A DNA stretch of 64,000 bases, from positions 71,516-135,515 of the forward strand of contig JAGSHN010000023.1 in assembly GCA_029855935.1 (NCBI GenBank). The letters are read 5' to 3'. The first letter of the stretch is position 1. Each line of letters opens with the position of its first letter. Below, one piece after another: positions 31,987 to 54,200 of this stretch. The stretch is from Candidatus Thorarchaeota archaeon (GTDB lineage Archaea; Asgardarchaeota; Thorarchaeia; Thorarchaeales; Thorarchaeaceae). The position numbers were made by a program, and so were the translations under genes. A model generated the notes under the pieces. That model saw only the letters and a program-made list of their open reading frames with translations. It was not told the origin of the DNA and ran no database searches.

Positions 31987-32688
31987 GTGAGTGACACAGC
32001 TGGTTTTCTCGACAAGTGGCTGTTCCGCATTGTGGCAGTCGCATATCTGGCCGTTGGAGCAGTCGGTACCACCTTTGTCAATCCTGAGACTCATGTCGGC
32101 TCAGCAGTGATTGTGGGAGGACTCGGGCTCATCATAGGCGGTCTCATGTTGTTGTCTTTGGCGATAGCTCCACTTGCCACTCAGTCCAGACTGGCACGCG
32201 CCTACGCCCTGTTCGCAGTCATCGGACTGGTTGTCCTGTTCCTAGTCATATTGGTGGTCAATGGAGTGTTTGGCATCTACTGGGATGAGTACTGGGGTGC
32301 CTACTATCCCGACGCCACTGGCATCTTGGTTGCAAACGCAGCCATCACACTTCTACCGCTGACCCTCATTCTCTGGCCCTGCATATGCCTGACGGCCAGG
32401 AGCCAGACAAAGAAGAAAATCATCGGACTCGCCATGTCCCGCCATGAGATATCGATGAAGGAGATTGCAGAGGAGACGGGCATACCCTCGCAGGCCGCCA
32501 AGGACGTGGTCATTGATGCGATCGCTGCGGGACGGCTGTCTGGAAACATCCGCGGGGACAAGTTTGTGAGAGCCACTGGAGCAGCTGCAGCCGCTGGCAG
32601 CGCCGTTGTGCTGGTCGTCTGTCCGTACTGTGGAGCAAAGACAGAACAGGGTCTCACCCACTGCCAGAACTGTGGTGCAAAGCTGTAG
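31987..32688 (+). CDS. 4-TM membrane protein with PCI-like winged helix and C-terminal zinc ribbon (copy 1)
   Basis: EISMKEIAEETGI...DAIAAGRLSGNI (PCI-like); CPYCG..CQNCG. Confidence 0.75.
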   Translation: MSDTAGFLDKWLFRIVAVAYLAVGAVGTTFVNPETHVGSAVIVGGLGLIIGGLMLLSLAIAPLATQSRLARAYALFAVIGLVVLFLVILVVNGVFGIYWDEYWGAYYPDATGILVANAAITLLPLTLILWPCICLTARSQTKKKIIGLAMSRHEISMKEIAEETGIPSQAAKDVVIDAIAAGRLSGNIRGDKFVRATGAAAAAGSAVVLVVCPYCGAKTEQGLTHCQNCGAKL

Positions 32689-32972: not shown

Positions 32973-33674
32973 GTGAGTAGTACGTCAGGTTCTCTTGGCA
33001 GGTGGCCCTTCCGCATTGTGGCGATCGCATATCTGGTCCTTGGAGCAGTCGGGATTACGGTCTACAATCCTGAGGTCGTTGAGGCCATAGGGATAGTTGC
33101 GGGAGTGCTCGGAATCATCATAGGTGGTCTCATGTTGCTGTCCGCGGCGATAGCTCCACTTGGCACTCAGTCCAGACTTGGACGCGCTTATGCCTTGTTC
33201 GCAGTCGTCGGACTCATTACGTTGTTCTTGGCGATTCTGGTGGGTAATGGAGTCTTTGGCGTGCGCTGGGCCAACTTCCCGGGCGTCTATCGTCTTGACG
33301 AGAGCGGCATGGTGGTGGCAAACGCCTCCACCGAACTCTTGCTGCTGACCCTCATTCTCTGGCCCTACCTGTGCGTGAGAGCCACGAACCAGACAGAGAA
33401 GAAGATCATCGGACTTGCCCTCTCCCGCTATGAGATATCGATGAAGGAGATTGCAGAGGAGACAGGCATACCCCCGCAGGCCGCGAAAGATGTGGTCATT
33501 GATGCGATTGGTGCGGGACGACTCTCCGGAAACATCCGTGGCGATACATTCGTGAGGGCCACCGGAACGGCAACGGCTGGTCGCGATGCCGTCGTGTTGG
33601 TTGTCTGTCCCTACTGCGGAGCGAAGAACGAGCAGGGTCTCACTCACTGCCAGAACTGCGGTGCAGAGCTGTAA
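32973..33674 (+). CDS. 4-TM membrane protein with PCI-like winged helix and zinc ribbon (copy 2)
   Basis: Paralog of 31987-32688. Confidence 0.75.
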   Translation: MSSTSGSLGRWPFRIVAIAYLVLGAVGITVYNPEVVEAIGIVAGVLGIIIGGLMLLSAAIAPLGTQSRLGRAYALFAVVGLITLFLAILVGNGVFGVRWANFPGVYRLDESGMVVANASTELLLLTLILWPYLCVRATNQTEKKIIGLALSRYEISMKEIAEETGIPPQAAKDVVIDAIGAGRLSGNIRGDTFVRATGTATAGRDAVVLVVCPYCGAKNEQGLTHCQNCGAEL

Positions 33675-35140: not shown

Positions 35141-36257
35141 GTTTGAATCGGACTACAACTAGGGTTGAAACCTCACTCTCCTCTCGGGTCCACGTCTGCC
35201 TCTCTGAGTTTGAATCGGACTACAACTAGGGTTGAAACCAGTCTCTCGGTCGGGCCGCCAACGCTGAAATATATGTTTGAATCGGACTACAACTAGGGTT
35301 GAAACCTGCTTGAGATAGCGGGGGGCCTCATCGATTTCTGCTGTTTGAATCGGACTACAACTAGGGTTGAAACATTGCATATTATATCTGCGTGAAATTG
35401 GCCGAGAATGTTTGAATCGGACTACAACTAGGGTTGAAACCAGAAAAGGAGAGTCATAGATGGGGTGGCCGCACTCGTGTTTGAATCGGACTACAACTAG
35501 GGTTGAAACACGATGCGCGTGTGGCGGTCGAACTGTGCCAGAATCCGTTTGAATCGGACTACAACTAGGGTTGAAACGAAGAAATCAGATGCACCTGTGA
35601 CCTCACCGCGTTTGTTTGAATCGGACTACAACTAGGGTTGAAACCAAAGACGCGGAATGCGTCAAGTGTCTTACCGCCATTGTTTGAATCGGACTACAAC
35701 TAGGGTTGAAACCTTGAGGCGGACGTCCTCTGGGTTCCCCCAGTAGGGGAGTTTGAATCGGACTACAACTAGGGTTGAAACACAGAATCATTGTGTTGGT
35801 GTTGTATATCCACGAGCAGGGTTTGAATCGGACTACAACTAGGGTTGAAACTCTGGAGGATGGCGTGTTCCATGTGTTCTTGGGCTGGTTTGAATCGGAC
35901 TACAACTAGGGTTGAAACCCAAGAGAGGCCTGAAAGACCTCGCCATCGAGGACCGTTTGAATCGGACTACAACTAGGGTTGAAACGTCGCTCGGCTCCTC
36001 CTCCCTCAAGAACCTCGTCACGGTTTGAATCGGACTACAACTAGGGTTGAAACTGTTCACGTGGCCAGACAGTTGCGCGGTCTGTTCGGTCGTTTGAATC
36101 GGACTACAACTAGGGTTCAAACCTGCTTCGGGATTGGGAAGGGGGTGTGGAGCAGGCGAGGCCAGGATCGGACCACAGTAGGACTTAGCCCAGAGCTAGC
36201 TTTGCCTGCATCTCCGGACGGTCAGGGTCTGAGTGGGACTAGCAATTGAGATGGAAC
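35141..36257 (+). CRISPR. CRISPR array 1: repeat GTTTGAATCGGACTACAACTAGGGTTGAAAC (31 nt); 15 repeats (35141-36122) plus 2 degenerate trailer repeats
   Basis: Spacers 36-39 nt; repeat 15 ends TTCAAAC; degenerate copies lie in phase at 36161-36190 and 36227-36257. Confidence 0.97.
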
Positions 36258-36406: not shown

Positions 36407-37453
36407 TCATCGATTCTCTATGCGGCCGAGCAGATCGTCTCTCTGGACCTCGCGTTTGAACCGGTCAACACTGAGGCGGCGTAGTCTCTCGTATCTCTCT
36501 CCATTCCAGTGCAGGAGATCGAATGAGCGGGTATGAGACAGCAGGCTACCAACAAGGAACGCCACGACGACAGGGCTTGCGAAGACGAGATACGGCCTCT
36601 GTCTCGCGGGGAGTATCTCAAGGATGTGTTCAATCACGATAGCAATGTACTCGGAGGCGTGCGTGATGTTCGGCGGGTCGATATGAACCCCTTCGTCAAT
36701 CTCCACGACCACGTCATATCCTTCTCTGACGAGAACCGCCCTTGTCGGACGCGATACGGCAATGGAGATGGCCACTTTCCTCCCACGCAGATGCTCAGCG
36801 ACCTCTCTGACATCCACCTGTCCGAGTAACGCTGAGAGCAGTACGTCGTCACCAGCGACTGGCAGGCCCCAGAACGTGAGACGTGTCTCGTCGCTCTCAT
36901 CGCGCTCAAATGTCTTGTCAGACTGCATTGATCTGAAGCGGTCCCAGTTGATGTGCTCCATCTGTTCGTATCTCTGGCCATCCCAGTGTAGCAGGGTGTA
37001 CTGGTCACTGTGGCCCAGAAGGTTTCCGATTATGAACGCAACGACCGTCGGGCAGGCCAGTGCCAGAGCAATAGGCACTCTTGGTGCCGAAGACAGAGAC
37101 GGTGCAACGCTTCTCTCAAGTTCCGTCAATCTACGAATGGCAGCGGCAGCGGATTCGGCCCACCAAGTCATCTTGGACGTGGGAATCTGACGGTCGGGCC
37201 TCCCAATCTCTCCTATGACATTGTAGCCAATCTTTGCTACTGCCGGAGTCGCATTCCTGCTGAAGTTGACAACGATGGCGGATGGTCGAGCGTCTGGATA
37301 GTACGCACGGACAGGGACTCGCCTTCGTCCCCTCAGCCAGTTGATCCCATCTCTCAGGCGCCACAGAACGTCTGAGATTTCAGCGGCTATTCCGACTACT
37401 GCGACCGGGTCGGGCAAGTTGACAAACCTCACATCCGAATGAGTTTCAGCCAT
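36407..37453 (-). CDS. Stand-alone SAVED-like protein of two homologous halves, with an N-terminal amphipathic helix
   Basis: ALACPTVVAFIIGNLLGH..YTLLHWDGQRY and VFASPVVVAFLVGSLLSH..FDLLHWNGERY; VVNFSR / IAVSR. Confidence 0.7.
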   Translation of the reverse strand: MAETHSDVRFVNLPDPVAVVGIAAEISDVLWRLRDGINWLRGRRRVPVRAYYPDARPSAIVVNFSRNATPAVAKIGYNVIGEIGRPDRQIPTSKMTWWAESAAAAIRRLTELERSVAPSLSSAPRVPIALALACPTVVAFIIGNLLGHSDQYTLLHWDGQRYEQMEHINWDRFRSMQSDKTFERDESDETRLTFWGLPVAGDDVLLSALLGQVDVREVAEHLRGRKVAISIAVSRPTRAVLVREGYDVVVEIDEGVHIDPPNITHASEYIAIVIEHILEILPARQRPYLVFASPVVVAFLVGSLLSHTRSFDLLHWNGERYERLRRLSVDRFKREVQRDDLLGRIENR

Positions 37454-41792: not shown

Positions 41793-43493
41793 ATGACTAG
41801 GGTATTGGTTACTTCACTCGGCGCGCCGTCACGCGGCTACTCGTTGAGCACCTACCGCCTTCACAACTCGGACACTGCTCCTTGGCAAGGTAAGTTCGCG
41901 GGACTGGCTGTTCGGGACCTATTGGGACCCTTCGACAACTTGATTGTCCTTGTCACCGAGAGATCAGAGAAACACCTTGCTGAGTTCAAGAAAGCAGCGG
42001 GAGTCAGACAAGCAAGGCGTGTTCCGGTTCCCGAGCCCCTGACAGAGGGTGATCAGTACAGTGCCATTGACAAGATTGTCGGTGCTGTGGAAGAGATTGC
42101 AACTTCTGATCTCCCGGATATTCGCATAACCCTCGACATAACCTTCGGGTTCAGATCTCAGCCGCTCCTATACTTTGCCGCGCTCGCCTTCTTGAAGGAA
42201 CTTCAAGGGGCTGAAGTGGAACACGTTGTTTATGCTCACCGGAAAGACCCCGCCAGGGACGAGTACGAGATTGTCGAGCTCACGCCGGCCTACGAGATGA
42301 TTGACTGGGCATATGCCGTCAGAACCTTTGTAGATTCCGGTGATACGGGGTACTTGGCAAGAATCTTGGACCGGAGGGTGCAGATGCTACGTGCTAGAGG
42401 AGAACCTTTCAAGACGGTAGATGACATTCGCAAGTGTCTGAGCGGCTTCTCGAACCTCGTTGGTGCGGCATTGCCGATAGAGCTTGGTAACGCAGCCAAG
42501 TCACTTCTGGACAAACTCGATCGGCGCAGGGAAGAACTGCGAGAGGCCAAGATCTTCTGGCGACTCATTGACTCGTTGACTGAGGTGGGAGAGCAACTCT
42601 CGTGCTCCCTGCTTGCTAGGAACAAGGCCACGATTCCTCTGACACGTGAGGTGATTGAACACCAGATTCGCGTCACCGAGTGGGCGCTCTCGCACAACCA
42701 GATTGCGAACGTCGTGGCCATACTCCGAGAGGCGGCAATCAATCTGATACTGCTCAGGCGCTCGTCTGAGAGATGGCTTGACAGGAGCGAGAGAGAAGAG
42801 GCCGCCTATCTTCTATCGTCAATGGAGCGAATGATGAAGAGAGGGGACCTCAGAGACAGGCTGACCGACTTTCAACAGGAGTTCCTGGCTGCATTCGTAA
42901 GAATCAGAGATCACAGAAACAGGATGGCCCACTGTGGCTTCACTGAGAACAGGGTCAGTCTTACAGGTCTGGACGATGACATCAGGAACTTTGTTGAAGT
43001 GCTGCGCAGGGGCCTTGACGAGCTACAGCTGCCGCAGCAGGGGACTGCACACATACTGGTGAGCCCGCTGGGGCTCTCGATTGGCAGCCTCTACACCGCT
43101 CTGTTGGCAACCCAGCCCGACCATCTCATCGCCCTTGTGACAAAGAAGTCGCGGGGTTCATTGAAGTCGGTCCTAGAGGCCGCCAGTTTCCCTGAGTCCG
43201 AAACCACAGTCCTTGACGTCAAAGACCCTCACGCAGGCTTCGAGGAGATACCGTCGCTCGTCAGCAGGGCGGAGGACACGATCATCTCCGCGCGGGTGGT
43301 CATCGGGAACATCACGGGCGGGACCACAATGATGAGTGAGGCTGTCCGCGCGATTCTCGAGATGGCCAGATCGTACGCGGTACAGACCAAGACCTATGCT
43401 ATGGTCGACAGAAGACCGTTGGAGGAACAGAAACGTAATCCCTTCGTCAAGGGCGAGGCGTTTCAGATCAATGGATGTGTGAATGATGACTGA
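41793..43493 (+). CDS. csx1: Csx1 (CARF-HEPN RNase) with an extra C-terminal Crn1-like CARF domain
   Basis: LDITFGFRSQP (CARF); HRNRMAHCG (HEPN); C-terminal SPLGLSIG..NITGGTTMM. Confidence 0.85.
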   Translation: MTRVLVTSLGAPSRGYSLSTYRLHNSDTAPWQGKFAGLAVRDLLGPFDNLIVLVTERSEKHLAEFKKAAGVRQARRVPVPEPLTEGDQYSAIDKIVGAVEEIATSDLPDIRITLDITFGFRSQPLLYFAALAFLKELQGAEVEHVVYAHRKDPARDEYEIVELTPAYEMIDWAYAVRTFVDSGDTGYLARILDRRVQMLRARGEPFKTVDDIRKCLSGFSNLVGAALPIELGNAAKSLLDKLDRRREELREAKIFWRLIDSLTEVGEQLSCSLLARNKATIPLTREVIEHQIRVTEWALSHNQIANVVAILREAAINLILLRRSSERWLDRSEREEAAYLLSSMERMMKRGDLRDRLTDFQQEFLAAFVRIRDHRNRMAHCGFTENRVSLTGLDDDIRNFVEVLRRGLDELQLPQQGTAHILVSPLGLSIGSLYTALLATQPDHLIALVTKKSRGSLKSVLEAASFPESETTVLDVKDPHAGFEEIPSLVSRAEDTIISARVVIGNITGGTTMMSEAVRAILEMARSYAVQTKTYAMVDRRPLEEQKRNPFVKGEAFQINGCVNDD

Positions 43494-44523
43494 GAATGAA
43501 ACTAATGTTTCCGAACTGATCCAGCTCGTGGGTTCCAACCCCCTCCCGCTGTACATAAGCGCTTCCACGCTCCGGCCGAATATCGTCTATCTCCTGTGTA
43601 CTGACGAAACAAGGCCTGTGGCGGAACGGCTTCAACGAGAGTACAAGAAGTATAACATCGGCGCGGAACTACTGTTCATCAGAGATGCGACCAGCCCTCT
43701 GAGCTGCGAAACGGTGGTCACCGACAGACTGTCGAATGCCTTTCTCGACTACACTGGTGGCACCAAGGTCATGGCCGTCAACGTCTACCGTGCCTGGTCT
43801 CAGCACAGAGGCACTCTCAGCCGAGCGTGCTATGTGGACTCTGAGAAGGACGTACTCCGATTCGGTGATGGCAAGAATGTCCCGATCACTACGGAGCTGT
43901 CACTCGACCTGCTTGTCAGACTGCACGGTTTCCGGCTGTTGGAAACGAGGTCTTCCCTACCAGATGCCGATAGAATGCGTGAACTTGACAAAGAGGTCGA
44001 GAAGTATCTCGAAGCGATTGAACGCGGGGAGAAGACAGATCGAACTGCTGATGGGTTTTGGTTCGAGGAATGGGTCGCAGGCCTTTTGAAGCACAGACTT
44101 GATACACCTCTGAAGGTATATTGGGGAGCAAGAATTGCGCCACCTCACGCGCCCGGGATGGAACTCGATGTTGTGGCCATAAGGGGCCACAAGACCTTCG
44201 TGCTATCCTGCACAATCGGACCCAAATATGATCCCGCAAAGAGAAAAGCCTTCGAGGTCATTCTGCGATCTCATCAGATTGGGGGCAATCACGCAAGGGC
44301 GGCTCTCGTTAGTCCCATAGACATAGTTATGAACCCAAGTCCGAGTCGGTGGAGCTCTGACGAACTCATTGACCAAGCCTACAATCTTGAGAGTAGTGTC
44401 AAGTCACACTGGAATGATCCTATCGCCTTCAAGGTGTTCTCCCGGTCAGACATTGAGGAGTGGGTGGGTTTCGCTGGGGCCAAGAAGAAGGTCGATTCTC
44501 TGAGGAGATGGATTGAGTCATAG
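43483..44523 (+). CDS. can2: Can2/Card1-like CARF-PD(D/E)xK nuclease
   Basis: LVGSNPLP, DYTGGTKVM; GFWFEEWV..ELDVV..LSCT. Confidence 0.8.
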   Translation: MMTENETNVSELIQLVGSNPLPLYISASTLRPNIVYLLCTDETRPVAERLQREYKKYNIGAELLFIRDATSPLSCETVVTDRLSNAFLDYTGGTKVMAVNVYRAWSQHRGTLSRACYVDSEKDVLRFGDGKNVPITTELSLDLLVRLHGFRLLETRSSLPDADRMRELDKEVEKYLEAIERGEKTDRTADGFWFEEWVAGLLKHRLDTPLKVYWGARIAPPHAPGMELDVVAIRGHKTFVLSCTIGPKYDPAKRKAFEVILRSHQIGGNHARAALVSPIDIVMNPSPSRWSSDELIDQAYNLESSVKSHWNDPIAFKVFSRSDIEEWVGFAGAKKKVDSLRRWIES

Positions 44524-44538
44524 GAGTGATGATGGTAA

Positions 44539-46161
44539 ATGGGTATTCTAACGCTTGTGGACCTGCTTGGAATTCAGAGGTTCATCTTTGAGTCAAACCG
44601 GCTGAGGGATATTCTTGCCGGGTCTATGCTCGTACGCAAAGCGAGTACTGAAATTCTCTCTGACTTTGCGCAACGTTCAGGCCAGGTTGTCTACAGTGCA
44701 GGAGGCACGGGACTGATCCGATTCGAGGCAATGGAGGACGCACGGGAGTTTGCGGGAAGATATACTCGCTGGCTATTCGACAAAGCACCGGGTCTGGATG
44801 CTGCTATTCTCCACAAGAACTATGACGGCAATGGCGACTTCATCGGAACCATAGAGGACCTGGGCGAGCAGATGAGTCTGCTAAAGCTTCGCCGCAGGCG
44901 ACAACTCCCTCTCGGCGGTCTTGGCGTGACCGAGTCCTGCTATGAGACCGGCCAGCCAGCTGTCGCCTTCGACCGGGAGAGTACCAACTCCGTGCCCGTC
45001 GAGCCTCCACTTCCAGACGATTCTCACCAGACAAGACCCATCTCTGCATCTGTCAAGGCTCGACGCGCTGCTGACCTTGAGCGCCAGTCTGATGAGAGGT
45101 GGGTGAGGTTCCTTCCTAGCACTGAGGTTGAGATACGTGGTGAGGAGGTTCAACTTGAATTCCCGAAGGACCTAGACCACCTTGGGCGAAGCCGCACCGA
45201 GAAGAGCCTGATGGCAGTTGTCCACATAGATATGAACGATACAGGTGAGAAACTGCGAAAGATGCAGGAAACCCTCAGGGGGGAGAAAGAGGAAACAGCA
45301 AGGGCGCGCATCAAAAGCACATCTGAGCAGATCAAGAACATAGCTGCAAAAGCATTCAGGGTATGCGTCCAGAGAGTTGTGAAGTCAATAGTCGCTGAGA
45401 AGAAGGACGACGGTCGCCACTACTACATCCAGCACGCAAAGGCGACAAGCAAATTCGAGCTACTCTATCACGACGGCACTCTCTCATTGCCTCTACGCCC
45501 AATAGTCCTTGGAGGCGATGACCTGACCATAGTCTGTGATGCTCGTATAGCATTTGATCTTGCGGCAGCAGCTCTGGAGGAGTTTGAGAGAGGAAACATA
45601 GAGGGCGTCGGTCAGATCACTGGTTGCGCGGGCATAGCGATAGGACGGACTCATACGCCTTTCTTCAGACTCTATCAGCGTTCCGAGGAGCTCTGCAGAA
45701 ACGCCAAGCGGTGGCGCCACGCCGCAGACTATGCTGGTTCAGCCCTTGATTGGCATATCGAATATGGGCAGTCAATCGGACCAATCGAGGAGCTGCGTGC
45801 GCGGTACCTGAAACCCATTTCATCGGCATCACAGGAGTTCACAACATACCGGTTCACATGTCGTCCATATCCGCTTGACTATGATGACGAGTATCTGTCT
45901 TGGAGATGGCTATCGGACACATTCCTGTGTGGTCCCAACGGCCTTCAGACCGGGTCCTGGGCCGAGCGTCGCAACAAGGTCTACAGGCTGAGAGAGGCAG
46001 CACTTGAGGGCGAGGATGTTGTCAAAGGACTGCTCGAACGATGGAAGCGACTCGGCGACAATCTGAGGCTGCCAGCCGAGATAGGCAATGGGTACTTCAA
46101 GAATCAGACTCCGGTCCTTGACGCGGTGGAGCTGGTGAGTCTGTACTTCAAGTTGAGGTGA
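44539..46161 (+). CDS. cas10: Type III-D Cas10, HD-less, intact cyclase motif
   Basis: DLLGIQRFIF..NRLRDI.GS, VHIDMN, PIVLGGDDL; 540 aa with no N-terminal HD domain. Confidence 0.93.
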   Translation: MGILTLVDLLGIQRFIFESNRLRDILAGSMLVRKASTEILSDFAQRSGQVVYSAGGTGLIRFEAMEDAREFAGRYTRWLFDKAPGLDAAILHKNYDGNGDFIGTIEDLGEQMSLLKLRRRRQLPLGGLGVTESCYETGQPAVAFDRESTNSVPVEPPLPDDSHQTRPISASVKARRAADLERQSDERWVRFLPSTEVEIRGEEVQLEFPKDLDHLGRSRTEKSLMAVVHIDMNDTGEKLRKMQETLRGEKEETARARIKSTSEQIKNIAAKAFRVCVQRVVKSIVAEKKDDGRHYYIQHAKATSKFELLYHDGTLSLPLRPIVLGGDDLTIVCDARIAFDLAAAALEEFERGNIEGVGQITGCAGIAIGRTHTPFFRLYQRSEELCRNAKRWRHAADYAGSALDWHIEYGQSIGPIEELRARYLKPISSASQEFTTYRFTCRPYPLDYDDEYLSWRWLSDTFLCGPNGLQTGSWAERRNKVYRLREAALEGEDVVKGLLERWKRLGDNLRLPAEIGNGYFKNQTPVLDAVELVSLYFKLR

Positions 46162-46168
46162 TGATGAC

Positions 46169-46795
46169 TTGATTCCCCGTGAGTTGACGATTGAGCTCCT
46201 TTCTGACAGTGCATTCGGCGGCGACACTGGTGTCACTGTCGATAGAGAGGTCACACACGATGAAACTGGTCTACCGTTCATTCCCGGCAAGAGTATTCGC
46301 GGGCTACTGAGAGATACCTGGCTATCAATGCATCACTGCTTCCCCTCATTGTGGGAGGCTGCTGCACGGGTGCTCGGACGACCCAAACGCCTTGACGAGC
46401 ACTGTATCCTCCGCATAGGTGACGCTCTGCTCGAACCTGCTGTGAGGGAGTGGGTCCTATACGGCCTATCGAAGGGCACACGCCTCACATCCGACCTCGT
46501 TCTTGAGGCTCTCACCGACATTCGGACTCAGACGGCTGTTGACCGTGTCAGAGGGGCACCGAAGAAGGGGACACTCCGTAGCACTCGTGTCATATTGAGA
46601 GGTGTGAAGCTGCGAAGCCATCTGGAATGGCTCGGAGAACCGACAAAGGACGACCTGCGCGTTCTTGCCCTCTGCGCTCTGGGTACCCGACAGGCCGGGT
46701 TGTCTTCCAACCGGGGACTGGGCCACATCAGAATGCTTCTCGACAACAGTTTGCACCAGACAAGGAAACTGGCCAGACTGGAGGGGGGACAATGA
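46169..46795 (+). CDS. csm3: Type III-D Cas7-family RAMP
   Basis: VDREV..GLPFIPGKSIRGLLR, GLSSNRGLG. Confidence 0.88.
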   Translation: MIPRELTIELLSDSAFGGDTGVTVDREVTHDETGLPFIPGKSIRGLLRDTWLSMHHCFPSLWEAAARVLGRPKRLDEHCILRIGDALLEPAVREWVLYGLSKGTRLTSDLVLEALTDIRTQTAVDRVRGAPKKGTLRSTRVILRGVKLRSHLEWLGEPTKDDLRVLALCALGTRQAGLSSNRGLGHIRMLLDNSLHQTRKLARLEGGQ

Positions 46796-48414
46796 GTAAC
46801 TACTATCCGTTTGTTCTGCATCTTACCGCCCCAGCAATCATTCGTGATATTGGTCAGGACCCGTCCTGCGCGACGTCTATGGCATACATTCCGGGCTCAA
46901 CGATACGCGGTGCCCTTGCCTTCCGGGTGAAGAAGACCGCTCCGGACCTATTCGATAGGATTGTGTTGTCAGATGAGGTTAGGTTCCTCAATGCGTACCC
47001 GTATGTCGATCAGAAGAGGTTCCTACCAACGCCAGTTTCCTACGCACGAGAGAAATACAGTCACCCGGAGGTCATCTGGGACCGCGCAGCCCTCAATACA
47101 CAGATCGCTGGTCTTGTTCCGATCAGTAGACCTTTCTGCTCCTTGGTAGAACCGTCGGTACTGCTGTACACGCCAGCGATGGGACGACGGCTACATCACT
47201 TGCGCGACCGAAAGGCGGGTCTTGCCCACGGCAAGAACGAGAATCAGGTAGGCACAGTCTACTGGAACGAATATCTGGAGAGCGACCAAGACTTCTGCGG
47301 GGCAATCTATGTTCGCGATGGAGCGGAGACCGAGAGAATTGTGGACACCCTCAGGGAGTGTACATCGCAGCCTCTGTTGCTCGGACGCGCGAAGCGCAGC
47401 GGCTACGGAGGCCTGGCCACTGTAGAGTGGCAGCAGCCTGTGCGGCGCGAAGTCCTTCTGACCGGGAGACGGGATGTTGCAAGGAGCATTGATACCGGAG
47501 CGTACTTCAGAGTCGTACTGCTATCTGACTGTGTTTCAGTCAATCACGAGACCGGCGAGATCGACCCGTACAGTTCCATCACCGAACTCCTAAGGCAACT
47601 CAAAGGACGTGCCGATCTGCAGGCGATATTCTCAGGTACACGGCTCATCGGAGGATTCAACAGGACGTGGAGGCTTCAGACACCTCAGGAATGGGCTCTT
47701 GCTGCAGGCTCGGTTCTTGTTCTCCGGGCGACTGATACAATTGATGAGCAGACAATCCTCGACATAGAAGATCGTGGTCTAGGACTGCGCAGAAATGAGG
47801 GGTTTGGCCGGATAGTGTTCCTAGCCCACGCCCGAAATCGATTGTCACTCCAGACCGCCCCGACCGAGAAACCAGTAGCACCCGAAGGCAGCCCGCCAAA
47901 ACTGGTACTTCAAATTGAGAAAAGAATCATCTGGAATCAGCTCGTCCGCCAGTGCCAGATTCGCGCGTCGATGATTGCCGACGGAGTGCAGAGGCTTCCC
48001 AGTCCGAGCCTGCTCTCAAGGCTCTTGAGCGCTCTCTATAGCAAGGACAATGCGCTTGCGACGCTCAGCGAATGGCTGGGAGATAACGAGGAAAAGCAGT
48101 TGAAGAGTGACGCGATGAAGCAGCTGAAGGTAGCAAAGTTCAGACCTCCCGCGTGCTCAAGCGGCACAAGGACGAATCTGCGAGAATTCATTCGAAAGAT
48201 CATCAGGGCTGCCGAAGGGCGCAGAGAGAGGCCGAAACATCCTGAGGACCGCGAGTACTTCGAAACTATCATTGAAACCGAGAGAATCTCAAGGGAGTTC
48301 GGCATAAGGGACGAAGCAAGGACTCCAGAGACACGCGACCTTGTCCTGAAGTTCTTGGAGGCCTTTCTCGGAGCACTGGTGTACAAGGCCAACATCAGGA
48401 GGCGTGACAAGTAA
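46792..48414 (+). CDS. csx10: Csx10 (Cas5-family RAMP) with a probable fused Cas11-like C-terminal helical domain
   Basis: YIPGSTIRGALA, LGRAKRSGYG, GLGLRRNEGFG; C-terminal LPSPSLLSRL helical region; ATGA overlap with the upstream gene. Confidence 0.85.
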   Translation: MSNYYPFVLHLTAPAIIRDIGQDPSCATSMAYIPGSTIRGALAFRVKKTAPDLFDRIVLSDEVRFLNAYPYVDQKRFLPTPVSYAREKYSHPEVIWDRAALNTQIAGLVPISRPFCSLVEPSVLLYTPAMGRRLHHLRDRKAGLAHGKNENQVGTVYWNEYLESDQDFCGAIYVRDGAETERIVDTLRECTSQPLLLGRAKRSGYGGLATVEWQQPVRREVLLTGRRDVARSIDTGAYFRVVLLSDCVSVNHETGEIDPYSSITELLRQLKGRADLQAIFSGTRLIGGFNRTWRLQTPQEWALAAGSVLVLRATDTIDEQTILDIEDRGLGLRRNEGFGRIVFLAHARNRLSLQTAPTEKPVAPEGSPPKLVLQIEKRIIWNQLVRQCQIRASMIADGVQRLPSPSLLSRLLSALYSKDNALATLSEWLGDNEEKQLKSDAMKQLKVAKFRPPACSSGTRTNLREFIRKIIRAAEGRRERPKHPEDREYFETIIETERISREFGIRDEARTPETRDLVLKFLEAFLGALVYKANIRRRDK

Positions 48415-49873
48415 GATGAATCCAGCTGGGCAACTAGAGATCGACAAGACTATGACAGATGATGGCGGCGTTCGTTCCATTGTGGCACGTTGGGTGATCA
48501 CCGGAACACTAACGACGAGATCCCCTGTCCTGATTGGCGGTGCACTAGAGTCCGAGATTCTCGACAATGAGATTCTGCGGAGAAAGTACTCAGGCGAACC
48601 ATTCATTCCCGGTGCTACGCTGGCTGGTGCTCTCAGAAACTATCTTATGGATGTTCTTGCAGGATATGGCCAGTCGGACTCGGACATCGATATCTCGGAC
48701 CTGTTTGGTTCCCCTCACGAGAGCGAGGACCCGTGGCAGAGTTCGCTCATAGCATTTGACGCAGTGGCCGAGAAATGCCATCTCACAGAGATTCGGCACG
48801 GTGTCGCGATTGACAGCCGAACTGGTACCGCAGAGGAACACAAGAAGTTCACATACGAGGTTCTTCCGGCGGGGGTTGAATTCCCAATCCGATTTGACCT
48901 CGTCGTTGAAGCGTCCGATGACGAGATTGTTCTGTTGGAGAAGCTGGTCAAGGCACTGGAGGGCTTGGAGAATGGCGACATCCGATTCGGGATGAAAAAG
49001 AGTAGAGGTCTTGGTGAATGCGTCTGCAGCGACTGGCGGGTGAAGAGATTTGACCTCAGGTCAAAACAAGGGTGGCTTGACTGGGTTTCAACAGACCATC
49101 GAAGACCACTGGACGGTGATGCAAGGAAAAGCATTCGAGATGCGGTTTCCAGCGAGCTGGACAAAACAGTAGAGGACCTCCCAGACAGGCGGCAACGAGC
49201 AGTCTTTCGTCTGGAGCTGGACGCTAGAGGTCCACTGATAATTCGTTCACCGGGAACCAGCGCCGACGACCCCGACGCCTCACACCTACTCTCAGGGACT
49301 CAGCCCGTGGTCAGTGGAACGGCTCTGGCCGGGGTGTTGAGGACAAGAGCACTCCAGATTGCCCAGACAGTGAAGGGAGAGGATGGTCGCAGGCTCGTAG
49401 ACAGTCTGTTCGGGCCGCAACTTGGTAGTGACACAGAGAAGGCACGCAGATCTCGTGTTCAGGTGACAGAGGCCAGCATAGAATCAGCAAAGAGCCTTCA
49501 GCCCACCCGTGTACGGATAGATAGGTTCACTGGTGGATCGATGCACGGACTCCTGTTCACCGAGAGACTGGTCTATGGCGGAGAATTCTCTCTCACTATC
49601 GAGGTGAGGAATCCCACTGCGGCCGATATCGGACTGCTTCTGCTTGTGTTCAGAGACCTTGTGACAGGTCAATTGCAGATTGGGGGTGAGAGTTCCGTGG
49701 GACGGGGCATCACAACTGGGAGACTCACAATAGAAGAGATTCGACTCGATGATGAAACTTTGACCGGTATCACCGTGGCTCCGGGGGAAGTCTGCAAGGA
49801 GGCAGCACGGCTTGAAGAGTTCGTGGCAGAATTCCTCGGTGGGGCTGGCAAGAACGTTGGGGGTGAACGCTAG
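48404..49873 (+). CDS. csm3: Double-RAMP Cas7-Cas7 fusion (type III-D)
   Basis: Two RAMP units: IPGATLAGALR..FGMKKSRGLG and VSGTALAGVLR..IGGESSVGRG. Confidence 0.88.
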   Translation: MTSKMNPAGQLEIDKTMTDDGGVRSIVARWVITGTLTTRSPVLIGGALESEILDNEILRRKYSGEPFIPGATLAGALRNYLMDVLAGYGQSDSDIDISDLFGSPHESEDPWQSSLIAFDAVAEKCHLTEIRHGVAIDSRTGTAEEHKKFTYEVLPAGVEFPIRFDLVVEASDDEIVLLEKLVKALEGLENGDIRFGMKKSRGLGECVCSDWRVKRFDLRSKQGWLDWVSTDHRRPLDGDARKSIRDAVSSELDKTVEDLPDRRQRAVFRLELDARGPLIIRSPGTSADDPDASHLLSGTQPVVSGTALAGVLRTRALQIAQTVKGEDGRRLVDSLFGPQLGSDTEKARRSRVQVTEASIESAKSLQPTRVRIDRFTGGSMHGLLFTERLVYGGEFSLTIEVRNPTAADIGLLLLVFRDLVTGQLQIGGESSVGRGITTGRLTIEEIRLDDETLTGITVAPGEVCKEAARLEEFVAEFLGGAGKNVGGER

Positions 49874-50479
49874 ATGATAGCAAATGTGGACTGTATGGGA
49901 CTCGAGATTCGGGAACTTGAGAATCCAGACGACCTTCTCGACTGGTTGCTAGGTGGGGATGAACCTGCAGATCAGTCACACCACGACCTTGTCAATGGAC
50001 TGAGATGGGCACTGGTCTACACAACGGAGAGCATCGTGTGGGGAAAGATTCAGGATGGGAGATGGACGCTCGCGTCAAGCGTGTTCCCCGACACGCTCGT
50101 TTCACCGACCCACGACAATTTCCTTCGCGTCAGAATGTTTGGACCCCGTCTCGAGGTCAGAATATGGCGCCACGAGGAACAACTAATTGGTCGTGTCCTG
50201 GCTGATCAGCCCTCATTCCAAGGACCGGAGTGGCTTGAGCCGTGCGAACAGGAGTTCCTCCTTGTAGGCGACACCCTCGAAAGGTCCTCTGACAGGTTCT
50301 CGCTGGTCATCGGGAGGTCGGGCAGTCAGCAGGTTCTTCCCGTCAGTGTTGAGCCTGATACGTCCGGTAGACTCTCTCGTAGGCCACGCCTTGTCGTCAA
50401 ACACTATTTTGGGTCCGACCCTGAAACAGGAGAAACAAAACGGGTGGTTTCCCGGCTTGTTGATCTAATAGGAGGTTGA
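49874..50479 (+). CDS. csx19: Type III-D Csx19
   Basis: IVWG, VRMFG..EVRIWR, VKHY..SRLV; canonical position before the large RAMP. Confidence 0.85.
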   Translation: MIANVDCMGLEIRELENPDDLLDWLLGGDEPADQSHHDLVNGLRWALVYTTESIVWGKIQDGRWTLASSVFPDTLVSPTHDNFLRVRMFGPRLEVRIWRHEEQLIGRVLADQPSFQGPEWLEPCEQEFLLVGDTLERSSDRFSLVIGRSGSQQVLPVSVEPDTSGRLSRRPRLVVKHYFGSDPETGETKRVVSRLVDLIGG

Positions 50480-52659
50480 TGATAGTGCCAGTGAAACATG
50501 GATGGCCTAGTGATTCGATGCGCCACAGGAAGCAAGCCAGCTCGCGCGGCGACAGAAGAGGCGGAAAGGAAAGACCCCCAAGGGGGAAGAAGAGTCAGGC
50601 CAAGCAAGGGCGTGGTCCGAATGGACACTCCAAGAGCAAGGACCAACTCAAATCATCCACGGCGCCGTATAATTTCGTTCCGTTGCCGAATGAACCTATA
50701 CTGGTGGACAATGACGAAAAGTTCTATGTCGACCTCAATGGCGAGAGACGCCCAGTGTGGCAAATTGGAGACCACTTTCACGCGGACCTGTGCCACGGCT
50801 GGATAGACGTTGAGATAGAGGCCGAAACTCCCATCTACATTCGCTGTGCACCGCCCCCTGACAAGACATTGCCGTCGGACGTTCTCAGGAATCCGGAACT
50901 TCAGCATTTCTATCATCACGGTGATCCGGACAGACCCGTGATTCCCGGTAGCAGCATTAGAGGACCGATTCGCACGCTGTTTGAGATAGTGTCCTTCAGC
51001 AAGTTCATGCCGGGACAGCAGTTCCACGACAAGCAGTTCGTCTTCAGGGCAGTCGCCGACAGGTTCCCACTTGGGGACCATTATAGGGAGCTGATGACCA
51101 AGGGAGAGGTCCATGGGGGGTTCCTTGAGCGGAAGGGCAAGGACTGGTACATCCGTCCCGCAAAGGAGCCTCACGGGATAGCCATTGTGAAGATACCTGT
51201 GGATTGTGTTGCGCAGACGATGCCCAAAGGTGAGCACTGTGAGGTGCCAAGAGAGAAGTTGAAGAGTAAAGGCGCAGAGAATCTGAGGAGCATAGTGAGA
51301 TACATTGATCTTGATTCGTACTTGGATGAGGACAAGAACAGCAACGAGATAGAGTTACCTGCGTCAACTAAACTGTTCGAATCGCCAGAAGAGGGTCTTG
51401 AAGAGATTCACATCCTGCAGTGTGGCGAGGCTCCGAAACGAGAATTCTGCTACGCTATCTTCGGGCCTGAGGAGAACGATGACAGGCTCATTCCGATACC
51501 GGATGACCTGTGGATGCTGTATGATGAAGACGCAAAGATGAAGCGTGGCCTTCCCACCCGAGTGCTCCGCGAGAAGCACGCGCTACTCTATCTGACACGC
51601 AAGGACTACCGTTCTGAAGAGAATCCGCATAGTCTGGTATTCTTCGGCCCCTGCCGGATGTTTCGGATACCCTATGACTCAAGGGTGTCAGACCACGTAC
51701 CGGAGGCACTGAAGAAGCCCGGGGGGCTTGATCTGACCGAGGTGGTATTTGGTACCGCACGAAGGATCAATGACACAGACGGATCTGAGAGCAGCATTGC
51801 AATACGAAGTCGGCTGGTCTTTGAGGATGCATACTGGGTGGAGGGTGAAGACGGAAAGTCACCCTTCTATAAGAACAATGACGGAAGACGGGTCCCGCTA
51901 GTCCTGTCCGGTCCGAAGGCAACGGCATTTCAGCACTATCTCAAGCAGACACCGGAGGCAAAGGATGATCCGGAGGAGCATCTACTTGATTGGTCCGATG
52001 ACGAGGCGGAGATACGAGGCTACAAGCTATACTGGCACAAGAAGGGAGTGACGGACCGCGAGATCTTCCTGCACGACAAGGCAGGAAGGCCTCTCCGAAG
52101 ACCCCTGAAGAAACCCAAGCAACACACGGTGATTCGTCCTGTCAGGAGAGGGACGCGGTTCAGAGGAAGAATTCGTTTCAACAACCTGACGGATATCGAA
52201 CTGGGAGCGCTGCTCACCGTTCTTGACCTCGGACCCACAAAACGGCACAAGATTGGAATGGTCAAGCCCTACGGTATGGGGAGCGTGAGGATCACTCCCA
52301 CGGTCTATCGCATCGACCCGGTTGAGTGCTACTCGTGCCTGTTTGACGAGGCGGGTCGTCTTGCGCGACCAGCAGCACGACTTGAGGACGGAGAGGTCAC
52401 GAGGCTGAAGAGAGTGTTTGAGTCGTGGGTCACCCGCCGCGTGAAGACCGGGGGTCACAAGCTCTGGGAGATCCCGCGCTTGAAGAAGTTGTCAGTGATG
52501 CTGGAGTGGGACAACGCACCCGAGAGAACTTGCACGCGCTACCTGGGACACAATCCAGTGACAAACCGGATGAACCTGCGACTCTGGCGTGACAGGCCTA
52601 TCCTCCCCGACCCTGAGGAAGTGTCTAAGTGTAGAGCAAGAGCGCCTCAACGGGGCTGA
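50476..52659 (+). CDS. Type III-D Cas7 with large insertion (TIGR03986-like)
   Basis: APYNFVPL, IPGSSIRG, RGYKLYWH, FRGRIRFNNL..ELGALL, KIGMVKPYGMGS. Confidence 0.9.
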   Translation: MMIVPVKHGWPSDSMRHRKQASSRGDRRGGKERPPRGKKSQAKQGRGPNGHSKSKDQLKSSTAPYNFVPLPNEPILVDNDEKFYVDLNGERRPVWQIGDHFHADLCHGWIDVEIEAETPIYIRCAPPPDKTLPSDVLRNPELQHFYHHGDPDRPVIPGSSIRGPIRTLFEIVSFSKFMPGQQFHDKQFVFRAVADRFPLGDHYRELMTKGEVHGGFLERKGKDWYIRPAKEPHGIAIVKIPVDCVAQTMPKGEHCEVPREKLKSKGAENLRSIVRYIDLDSYLDEDKNSNEIELPASTKLFESPEEGLEEIHILQCGEAPKREFCYAIFGPEENDDRLIPIPDDLWMLYDEDAKMKRGLPTRVLREKHALLYLTRKDYRSEENPHSLVFFGPCRMFRIPYDSRVSDHVPEALKKPGGLDLTEVVFGTARRINDTDGSESSIAIRSRLVFEDAYWVEGEDGKSPFYKNNDGRRVPLVLSGPKATAFQHYLKQTPEAKDDPEEHLLDWSDDEAEIRGYKLYWHKKGVTDREIFLHDKAGRPLRRPLKKPKQHTVIRPVRRGTRFRGRIRFNNLTDIELGALLTVLDLGPTKRHKIGMVKPYGMGSVRITPTVYRIDPVECYSCLFDEAGRLARPAARLEDGEVTRLKRVFESWVTRRVKTGGHKLWEIPRLKKLSVMLEWDNAPERTCTRYLGHNPVTNRMNLRLWRDRPILPDPEEVSKCRARAPQRG

Positions 52660-53148: not shown

Positions 53149-54200
53149 GTTTGAATCGGACTAGAAGTAGGGTTGAAACCGTAGTCCAGCGACAGGTCCC
53201 AGTCCAGCCCGTTGCAGGTTTGAATCGGACTAGAAGTAGGGTTGAAACGCGGACTTCGAGAAGATCGCTGCGGAGTGCTATCTGGCGTTTGAATCGGACT
53301 AGAAGTAGGGTTGAAACGCGCTCCAGTTCGTGTCTAGCACGCTGATTATAGCATGTTTGAATCGGACTAGAAGTAGGGTTGAAACCTCTTTATTCAATGG
53401 AATCTTATCTATTAGAAAATAGTTTGAATCGGACTAGAAGTAGGGTTGAAACGACGCAACATACGCGGAGAAAGTGCTGAAGATCATGCGTTTGAATCGG
53501 ACTAGAAGTAGGGTTGAAACCTGATGGATGCCCGCGACAGATAGTTCCGTTCCTTGAGTTTGAATCGGACTAGAAGTAGGGTTGAAACACTCTGGCCCTG
53601 ACATTCGCATACTCCTCGTATGCACTGTTTGAATCGGACTAGAAGTAGGGTTGAAACTCAACCCTGTCACTGCTGTCACACTGTCTACCCCCTGTTTGAA
53701 TCGGACTAGAAGTAGGGTTGAAACCTTGATGTTGCGCTCGATGTCTGGAAGGGCCGTGCTGGTTTGAATCGGACTAGAAGTAGGGTTGAAACGCATGACG
53801 AGAAGCGGGCTCACCCGTTCACCGCTCTTGTTTGAATCGGACTAGAAGTAGGGTTGAAACACTCCTCCTCCTTCATCAGAGCCTTCATCATCTCGTGTTT
53901 GAATCGGACTAGAAGTAGGGTTGAAACATGATACGGGTGGCTTATAAGTCAAATCTCCGTAAAAGTTTGAATCGGACTAGAAGTAGGGTTGAAACCGTTC
54001 TGCGAGGATGTTGCCCGAAGGGCGGTCGAGAGGTTTGAATCGGACTAGAAGTAGGGTTGAAACGGCAGAAGGCCAGAGGTGACATTCTCGATGCGCTGCG
54101 GAGTTTGAATCGGACTAGAAGTAGGGTTGAAACAGCTCATCCAAAATATCATCTGCTAAGACAAATATTGTTTGAATGGGACTAGAAGTAGCGCCGGTAG
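53149..54200 (+). CRISPR. CRISPR array 2: repeat GTTTGAATCGGACTAGAAGTAGGGTTGAAAC; 15 intact repeats plus 1 degenerate, 15 spacers
   Basis: Spacers 36-39 nt; terminal repeat at 54170 reads GTTTGAATGGGACTAGAAGTAGCGCC... Confidence 0.97.

Follow-up and report, generated by a model that had tools for sequence, protein, structure and literature searches.

A fused two-lobe SAVED-type protein beside a type III-D CRISPR-Cas locus of a Thorarchaeota genome, and its split two-gene relatives

The 64,000-nucleotide (nt) stretch of a Candidatus Thorarchaeota archaeon genome analysed here (GCA_029855935.1, contig JAGSHN010000023.1, positions 71,516 to 135,515; hereafter the window) carries at the edge of a type III-D CRISPR-Cas locus a gene whose product, hereafter the target, is by profile searches and structure modelling a stand-alone two-lobe SAVED-type sensor of the clade of CalpL and AcrIII-2. 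Comparative evidence obtained in silico indicates that the target arose by fusion of two single-lobe genes, an A-type and a B-type, which remain separate in other Asgard genomes. The interpretation that we favour, with a probability of about 0.4, is that the protein binds cyclic tetra-adenylate (cA4) and stacks, acting as a sponge or slow ring nuclease.

Two homologous lobes with a SAVED-type fold

Residues 55-179 and 224-339 of the target are 34% identical over ~126 amino acids (aa), and BLASTP of residues 1-180 against 181-348 gave an E-value of 6e-19 (1e-19 with slightly shifted cut points), which places the similarity of the two halves far beyond chance as judged from these alignments. A recognisable duplication with the same motifs in both halves had been noted in the original prediction, made from the DNA sequence alone, and all of the quoted motifs were located in each half: S-R (S65-R66 and S234-R235), a helix motif (ACPTVVAF..G.LLGH at 133-147 and ASPVVVAF..G.LLSH at 292-306) and an LLHW motif (LLHWDGQRY at 154-162 and LLHWNGERY at 313-321). 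Consistent with the further suggestion of a stand-alone protein without an effector domain, only SAVED-type profiles matched the target in Pfam, NCBIfam and PADLOC, and no enzymatic domain was found with them.

The PADLOC matches to the target were SAVED4--SAVED_TM (E 1.9e-12, the best) and SAVED4--SAVED (E 1.5e-10), and SAVED4 profiles matched 20 of 20 family units; we take SAVED4 to be the label of the clade, going by the names of the PADLOC profiles. The Pfam model SAVED PF18145 scored 24.6 bits (E 2.3e-5) and the NCBIfam model SAVED NF033611 30.2 bits, just under their respective cut-offs of 26.2 and 33. A profile of the target family matched both lobes of AcrIII-2 (9r8s) at E 2.8e-14 and CalpL (7qda) at E 1.8e-6; these two structures were reached by family profiles only, a direct phmmer search of the target against PDB sequences having returned nothing relevant. 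The family also aligned by hhalign to the C-lobe of P0022 (probability 97.6%, E 2.8e-12). P0022 is a CalpL-type Lon-SAVED protein (L031:1973-3481; PADLOC E 1e-131) whose gene adjoins a Cas10 gene on a metagenome contig, and it served as the reference for motifs.

The N-half alone was modelled from an alignment because MAFFT aligned every single-lobe homologue to the first half of the target. The resulting AlphaFold2 (AF2) model, built from a 20-row alignment of family units, has a predicted local distance difference test score (pLDDT) of 83.8, exceeding 90 in the core, and shows a compact alpha/beta lobe preceded by a long N-terminal helix. Every significant Foldseek match of the model in the PDB was a SAVED domain, and in an exhaustive comparison with 48,161 PDB representatives the 12 best chains were all SAVED proteins (Z 12.2-8.3), including Cap5 (12.2), AcrIII-2 (11.4), CalpL (10.3), TIR-SAVED, Cap4 and Cap14, which align through the C-terminal lobe of their SAVED domain. 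Chains with a CARF domain (Csm6, Cam1, Cad1, Can2) scored 5.8-7.1, with Csm6 at 7.1 in one comparison and no CARF domain above 6.3 in the exhaustive one, and a CARF rather than SAVED fold was rejected on these values, as SAVED lobes reached Z scores up to 12.3 (range 8.3-12.3 over two structure comparisons). The SAVED-type fold first proposed from sequence is thus upheld by the N-half model. Homologous lobes (E 1e-19), an N-lobe matching SAVED chains at Z 12.2-8.3 and a predicted A/B interface helix like that of SAVED/CARF dimers (see below) together point to a two-lobed, single-chain SAVED protein.

Fusion of an A-type and a B-type single-lobe gene

An exhaustive HMMER search over 1.84 billion representative proteins gave 13 matches, all of which besides the target are single lobes of 128-223 aa, typically ~155 aa, while a word-indexed homologue search with the whole target protein returned the target itself only. 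Searching loci with the family alignment yielded three genome loci, two metagenome loci and none in viral contigs. The single lobes are of two kinds. A units have a hydrophobic helix at the N-terminus and the sequence D-x-D-R-F-R-R-x-L at the C-terminus; B units have a short initial strand, I-x-I-G-x-L-x-V-x-G, and an invariant S-R-P after strand 1. A maximum-likelihood tree separates clade A from clade B at 100/100 support, placing the N-half of the target in clade A as sister to P0017, and the C-half in clade B on a long branch (1.84). On average A units are 37% identical to the target N-half and B units 27% identical to the C-half. A recent in-place tandem duplication was rejected, since each half is closer to a different single-lobe clade than to the other half.

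In all nine loci with sufficient DNA (9/9) one A gene adjoins one B gene. The pair is divergent in eight loci (L002, L006/L007, L010, L013, L017, L019, L020) and in tandem in L011, where A precedes B by 14 nt. A survey of 400 genomes of the phylum found the module in five others, which all belong to the target's family, represent five different genera and have it in split form; only in the target genome is it fused, and it is missing from the four congeneric genomes. Identity between A and B within one genome is 26-35%, compared with 27% over whole units for the target halves, and the near symmetry of the target is therefore better regarded as a family trait than as a sign of recent duplication. 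The original prediction described a near-symmetric intermediate between CARF dimers and SAVED; the unusual similarity of the halves and the relevance to the origin of SAVED stand, but the implied fresh duplication and CARF-likeness do not, the halves being old paralogues A and B that were fused, with lobe Z scores of 9-12 for SAVED against 6-7 for CARF. In L006 the A-type gene (985-1494, minus strand) is absent from the public call, which lists a spurious 220-aa opposite-strand ORF (open reading frame; 877-1539) instead, and because this call was missed the L006 split pair seems incomplete in the public record.

The products of the split genes are predicted to form an A/B heterodimer, of which the target would be the single-chain equivalent. 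Complex prediction for the natural pair P0017 and P0007 scored 0.89 against 0.18 for the best control, a score that may partly reflect likeness to solved SAVED/CARF dimers and is compatible with A-A or B-B homodimers too; of the pairs used for calibration, 58 of the 80 solved complexes reached the mark, as did 2 of the 110 mismatched pairs. Different runs shared no less than 91% of contacts, with a partner pLDDT of 83 or higher. The predicted interface is pseudo-symmetric and involves the CP-x-x-x-AF helix and C-terminal elements, leaving the N-terminal helix outside. Compared with the lobes of CalpL and AcrIII-2, the A and B profiles both favour the C-lobe (19.8 vs 12.8 bits for A, 28.2 vs 24.2 bits for B). 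The profile scores thus do not single out a correspondence of A with the N-lobe and of B with the C-lobe, and the A/B duplication may be the SAVED4 duplication or a separate one.

We considered whether the fused ORF could be non-functional, arising from an assembly or sequencing artefact or from a decaying tandem A-B pair that lost a stop codon by chance. The fusion is indeed seen in a single genome, its C-half lies on the long branch mentioned above and has lost both the family Cys (ASP in place of SCP/ACP) and the EIG-x-P motif, and an in-frame ATG (M176) stands at the junction. Against this, all 348 codons are open and free of frame defects, the C-half keeps all of the face motifs (S-R, H-W and R-F-K), the contig is 135 kb long with intact cas genes nearby, and a tandem A-B operon of the kind able to precede a fusion is known from L011. 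We consider a non-functional fusion highly improbable.

Association with type III CRISPR signalling

The gene lies in a type III-D locus, whose members include Cas10d, Cas7/Cas5 III-D subunits and Csx19. The Cas10d of this locus has GGDD at residue 325 and is without an HD domain. Its Csx1 is a CARF-HEPN-CARF protein with the HEPN motif RNRMAH, its Can2-like protein combines CARF with a PD-(D/E)xK nuclease, and further members are Csa3 and a 586-aa protein of unknown function. These annotations, all made in silico, indicate that the target belongs to a signalling-only type III-D locus with the cA4-type effectors Csx1 and Can2.

Type III association extends to the split relatives. Cas10 occurs in five of six module-bearing genomes and in seven of 80 genomes of the same taxonomic family without the module (Fisher p 1.3e-4, for a test in which related genomes are not independent). 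It lies within ~12 kb of the module in the window, in L006, L011 and L013 and in genome G318. In L006, an orthologous III-D locus with a conserved gene order has the split pair at the corresponding end, and the Cas10d and Csx1 of that locus are 45% and 35% identical to those of the window. In the type III-B locus L011 (244-2008 and 3060-4767), Cas10 is called as two ORFs of 289 and 300 aa, and a Csx20 ring-nuclease gene directly precedes Csx1.

Immediately upstream of the target gene (41 nt) and on the same strand, P0002 encodes a Csx1-like protein that is 24% identical to the local Csx1 over its CARF and helical part and from which the HEPN RxxxxH motif is absent. P0002 and the target may share an operon of effector-less sensors.

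Predicted mode of action

In the mechanism that we favour, the target would bind the product of Cas10, most likely cA4, on a top face to which the (A/S)-(C/S)-P turn, the H-W pocket and the S-R that follows strand 1 contribute. Once loaded with ligand, protomers would stack head-to-tail, the next protomer covering the ligand with its conserved bottom Arg-Phe-Arg/Lys helix, as happens in CalpL, AcrIII-2 and Csx15. Free cA4 would be removed by sequestration or slow cleavage, whereby Csx1 and Can2 would be damped and the system reset. A ligand sandwich with head-to-tail stacking is the most economical arrangement because both faces are conserved, and removal of cA4 appears the likeliest output because the protein lacks an effector domain and the genome, which is 97% complete, contains no other ring nuclease that could be recognised. 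Models for Crn2/DUF1874, Csx15, Csx20, Csx3 and TIGR02619 gave no match in this genome, despite its cyclase-competent Cas10 and two effectors of cA4 type, which is weak evidence as some of them were also silent in control genomes. To our knowledge, every stand-alone CARF/SAVED-like protein so far characterised from a type III locus is a ring nuclease or a sponge.

The composite active site of CalpL and AcrIII-2 provides a framework for this proposal. Its top face consists of Ser-His (SsCalpL S391/H392; AcrIII-2 H128, S194) and a pocket with H345 and H474, and its bottom face of Arg/Lys residues (R361/K364/K366; AcrIII-2 R96/K99) from the next protomer of a head-to-tail stack (PMC11417357; 10.1101/2025.07.01.662501). 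We mapped the target residues by hhalign to both lobes of P0022 and by hidden Markov model alignments to 9r8s and 7qda, that is by profile alignments, not superposed structures. On this mapping the Ser after strand 1 (CalpL S391) corresponds to S65 and S234, the conserved H156 and H315 align with pocket residues H345 and H474 of SsCalpL, and D171-R-F-R174 and D330-R-F-K333 align with bottom-face R361/K364 (R96/K99 of AcrIII-2). Conservation within the family is asymmetric, the bottom motif being nearly invariant in A units and S-R-P invariant in B units, and this mirrors CalpL, whose bottom face comes from the N-lobe and whose top face comes from the C-lobe.

The position of the essential top-face His, which follows strand 1 of the C-lobe (SsCalpL H392, CcaCalpL H396, AcrIII-2 H128), is occupied by Arg in the target (R66 and R235), with NFS-H of P0022 falling on NFS-R of the family; it is an invariant Arg in B units and variable in A units. 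A solo ring nuclease had been argued from a His present in both halves, an argument that does not hold: H156 and H315 correspond to the non-essential pocket His, and mutation of H345 and H474 does not abolish cleavage in SsCalpL (PMC11417357), for which reason ring-nuclease activity cannot be inferred from them. Since Arg replaces the catalytic His, we would expect a sponge or slow enzyme rather than a fast ring nuclease. There is precedent for both among Csx15 proteins, as PfCsx15 is a non-enzymatic sponge and sequestration or slow cleavage has been described for Csx15 variants (PMC13148439).

Several observations weigh against removal of cA4 by the target. Canonical catalysis appears not to be conserved in the family, because the essential His aligns with Arg in both target lobes and in every B unit. 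The conserved hydrophobic and basic N-terminal helix of A units has no role in either a sponge or a nuclease. The L010 pair lies in a restriction-modification island with no Cas10 within 10 kb, the L011 pair co-occurs with the Csx20 ring nuclease, a second ring nuclease in one locus being uncommon (PMC12409355), and the L013 pair is near a small CARF-only protein. In the window itself, the extra C-terminal CARF of the local Csx1 could serve as an off-switch. The confident structure model, moreover, covers the N-half only, the full-length single-sequence AF2 model having a pLDDT of 33.

The N-terminal helix invites a different output, and we consider it possible, if on balance unlikely, that the protein is a minimal membrane effector triggered by cyclic oligoadenylate (cOA), in which stacking would cluster one N-terminal helix per protomer (that of the A subunit in split forms) and so perturb or depolarise the membrane, by analogy with Cam1 and the transmembrane (TM) SAVED proteins of cyclic-oligonucleotide-based antiphage signalling systems (CBASS). 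The helix recurs in each of the 10 A units, which share with a more distant relative in L024 a common N-terminal plan (M-x-D/E, ~16 hydrophobic residues, then a T-R-x-K/R amphipathic basic stretch) that fits a positive-inside pattern. That relative (L024:1507-2115, minus strand) is a 202-aa single lobe from another family of the phylum, with a hydrophobic helix at its N-terminus and a lysine-rich stretch after it; it has no adjoining B partner and is flanked by a VapBC-like pair and a PLD-like gene. A membrane role would also suit the best PADLOC profile, SAVED4--SAVED_TM, the existence of TM-fused SAVED4 proteins, the presence among the fold matches of solved 3TM-SAVED filaments, of Cap14 and, at Z 6.3, of the Cam1 CARF, the co-occurrence with Csx20 in L011 and the CARF-only protein in L013, and the missing catalytic His, as expected of an effector meant to stay on. 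The helix itself is less favourable. KD19 hydropathy ranges from 0.90 to 1.94 across ten A units, reaching at least 1.74 in four of them, but is only 0.9-1.35 in six of the 10, with the target at 1.23 (<H> 0.60, muH 0.21); the hydrophobic run of ~16 aa holds charges (E25 and D28 in the target, K and D in P0004, E in L011_A), Eisenberg values are equivocal, and the helix has a pLDDT of ~60. On hydropathy it is a borderline case, too short and too polar to be designated a transmembrane helix, although it may yet be one. There would be a single helix per heterodimer, and a membrane effector would leave the target genome otherwise without a recognisable ring nuclease. Carried further, the analogy raises the prospect, likewise speculative and rather doubtful, that the A/B family is the smallest known cOA effector, its output being one short helix per protomer clustered by cA4 filaments, and that in the target Asgard archaea have recently and independently reinvented a single-chain SAVED effector, starting from a heterodimer.

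Less probable still is a pure sensor or adaptor that would bind cOA and relay the signal to a partner, either P0002 or a protein recruited by the helix, without being sink or effector. P0002 is close by, co-oriented and equally effector-less, SAVED4 relatives such as CalpL act via partner proteins (PMC11417357), and an adaptor would give the conserved helix, which is otherwise unexplained, a possible use. Set against this, no third gene is conserved at the A/B pairs, whose neighbours vary among L002, L006, L010, L011 and L013, and P0002-like genes were not seen beside split pairs.

Comparison with known systems and implications for the origin of SAVED

AcrIII-2 (vSAVED; 9R8S; 10.1101/2025.07.01.662501) is likewise a stand-alone, effector-less two-lobe SAVED protein of the CalpL clade and is closest to the target by sequence profile, with a fold match of root-mean-square deviation 2.6 Å over 119 residues. 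The two share the basic bottom-face helix and the S/A-C-P turn. AcrIII-2 stacks head-to-tail around cA4, an arrangement proposed for the target as well, and it is a viral anti-CRISPR with a catalytic His128, in contrast to the Arg of the target and to a family absent from the viral contigs searched. Its lobes are not detectably alike, it is without the N-terminal helix, and no split-gene relatives of it have been described. The SAVED domain of CalpL (7QDA, 8B0R, 9EYJ; PMC11417357) belongs to the same SAVED4 clade. CalpL has strongly diverged lobes and an essential His392 where the target has Arg, and it carries a Lon protease in the same chain and has CalpT and CalpS as partners, whereas the target stands alone.

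Csx15 offers a parallel in architecture (PMC13148439; 10.64898/2026.10.26.761840), comprising single-lobe, effector-less, type III-associated units that dimerise and stack head-to-tail with the ligand between layers, act as ring nuclease or sponge and in some members carry N-terminal TM helices. Membership of the target in Csx15 was rejected, given that no Csx15 model matched the target (NCBIfam, threshold E 0.01) or any of the 20 units (PADLOC, threshold E 1). The Csx15 model NF040560 found nothing in the target genome and gave no match in control genomes either, and Csx15 structures were absent from the fold-match lists, possibly because they are not in the structure library. Csx15 is moreover a homodimer from one gene, while the target is a two-lobed chain with relatives that look like obligate A+B pairs, and all members of the target family found to date come from Asgard-type archaeal genomes and metagenomes. 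The split pairs of other Asgard genomes are its direct homologues, with the same motifs and type III neighbourhood, and differ from the single-chain target in being encoded by two ~155-aa genes, usually divergent. Cam1 and TM-SAVED (8T64, 9WQ2/9WQ3, 9OM7) resemble the target in joining an N-terminal hydrophobic helix to a cytoplasmic cyclic-nucleotide sensor with ligand-driven oligomers, but their helices are clearly transmembrane whereas the target segment is short and partly charged, and the fold match to the Cam1 CARF is weak.

SAVED is thought to derive from fused single-lobe sensor subunits; Csx15-like homodimers have been proposed as the precursor, and rare Csx15-Csx15 fusions, which have been reported, as a route (bioRxiv 10.64898/2026.10.26.761840). 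Both the idea of SAVED by fusion (from Csx15) and stand-alone SAVED ring nucleases (AcrIII-2) are therefore already known. What is new here is the fused A-B member, known from a single assembly, its apparent origin by the fusion of two old paralogues, as opposed to copies of a single gene, and the Arg at the catalytic His position. The family would represent a second, independent series toward SAVED, inside the CalpL/AcrIII-2 clade, in which split and fused states can both be seen, and it adds a stage that is undescribed in the literature searched, namely diverged paralogues A and B as a two-gene module predicted to heterodimerise; a search for split, half or heterodimeric SAVED found no paper. 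In a related genome, the corresponding end of an orthologous type III-D locus carries a fusion of exactly these two, A and B. The order of events, from duplication through sub-specialised top and bottom faces to fusion, is testable with natural proteins. Because of the Arg at the catalytic His position and the unexplained conserved N-terminal helix, the output could be sequestration, slow cleavage or membrane action, any of which would broaden the view of how type III signalling is controlled in Asgard archaea.

Gene features and genomic neighbourhood

The true start of the target is probably the TTG at codon 13 rather than the ATG, because the public gene call (P0003) has 336 aa and clade-A relatives open with M-x-D/E directly before the helix. 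This start would place the helix at the extreme N-terminus, matching all clade-A relatives. An amphipathic helix followed by basic residues had been read from the sequence at this end of the protein, and the AF2 model does contain a helix at residues 16-43, amphipathic in the target, with R-G-R-R-R at residues 41-45. A 10-aa insertion at residues 113-122 of the A-type lobe is specific to the target. The in-frame ATG at M176 (36926-36928) lies just upstream of the linker, about where a B-type gene would begin, and internal initiation there could in principle yield an additional free B unit. Coordinates are collected in Table 1.

Table 1. Features of the target gene and its surroundings, in window coordinates; residues are numbered from the ATG.
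Feature	Position	Strand	Description
Whole target ORF	36407..37453	-	Intact, 348 aa from ATG, stop codon included; predicted fused A-B two-lobe SAVED4-type protein
Alternative TTG start, codon 13	37415-37417	-	GAGG ~10 nt upstream; yields the M-P-D-hydrophobic N-terminus typical of A units
N-terminal helix, residues 16-43	37325..37408	-	16-aa hydrophobic stretch with E25 and D28, then basic amphipathic part ending RGRRR
A-type lobe core, residues 45-178	36920..37321	-	AF2 pLDDT >90; groups with clade A at 100/100
Features of the A lobe			S65-R66, putative top face; ACP 133-135; H156-W157, putative pocket; D171-R-F-R174, putative bottom face
Acidic junction/linker, residues 179-191	36881..36919	-	Delimited by aligning the halves to split A and B proteins
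B-type lobe, residues 192-340	36434..36880	-	B homologues align to residues 192-338; groups with clade B at 100/100, branch 1.84
Features of the B lobe			Extra N-terminal strand RLTFWGLPVAG; S234-R235-P; ASP 292-294; H315-W316; D330-R-F-K333
P0002	37495..38466	-	323 aa, Csx1-like CARF + helical region; PADLOC CARF2; 41 nt upstream of target
Type III-D signalling locus	41793..52659	+	Csx1, Can2-like protein, Cas10d, Cas7/Cas5 III-D subunits, Csx19

A type I adaptation/Cas3 block lies near the type III-D locus. Two adjoining paralogous genes for 233-aa proteins (31987-32688 and 32973-33674, plus strand), which match PCI/winged-helix models weakly and carry a zinc ribbon (DUF7577) at the C-terminus, stand upstream of a DNA-alkylation-repair gene. 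The window also contains three short CRISPR arrays of 2.5 repeat copies each (35141-35306, 35547-35713 and 53558-53724), the first two of which are located just downstream of the target gene. All three share a 31-nt repeat that starts with GTTTGAATCGGACTA and ends with GGGTTGAAAC.

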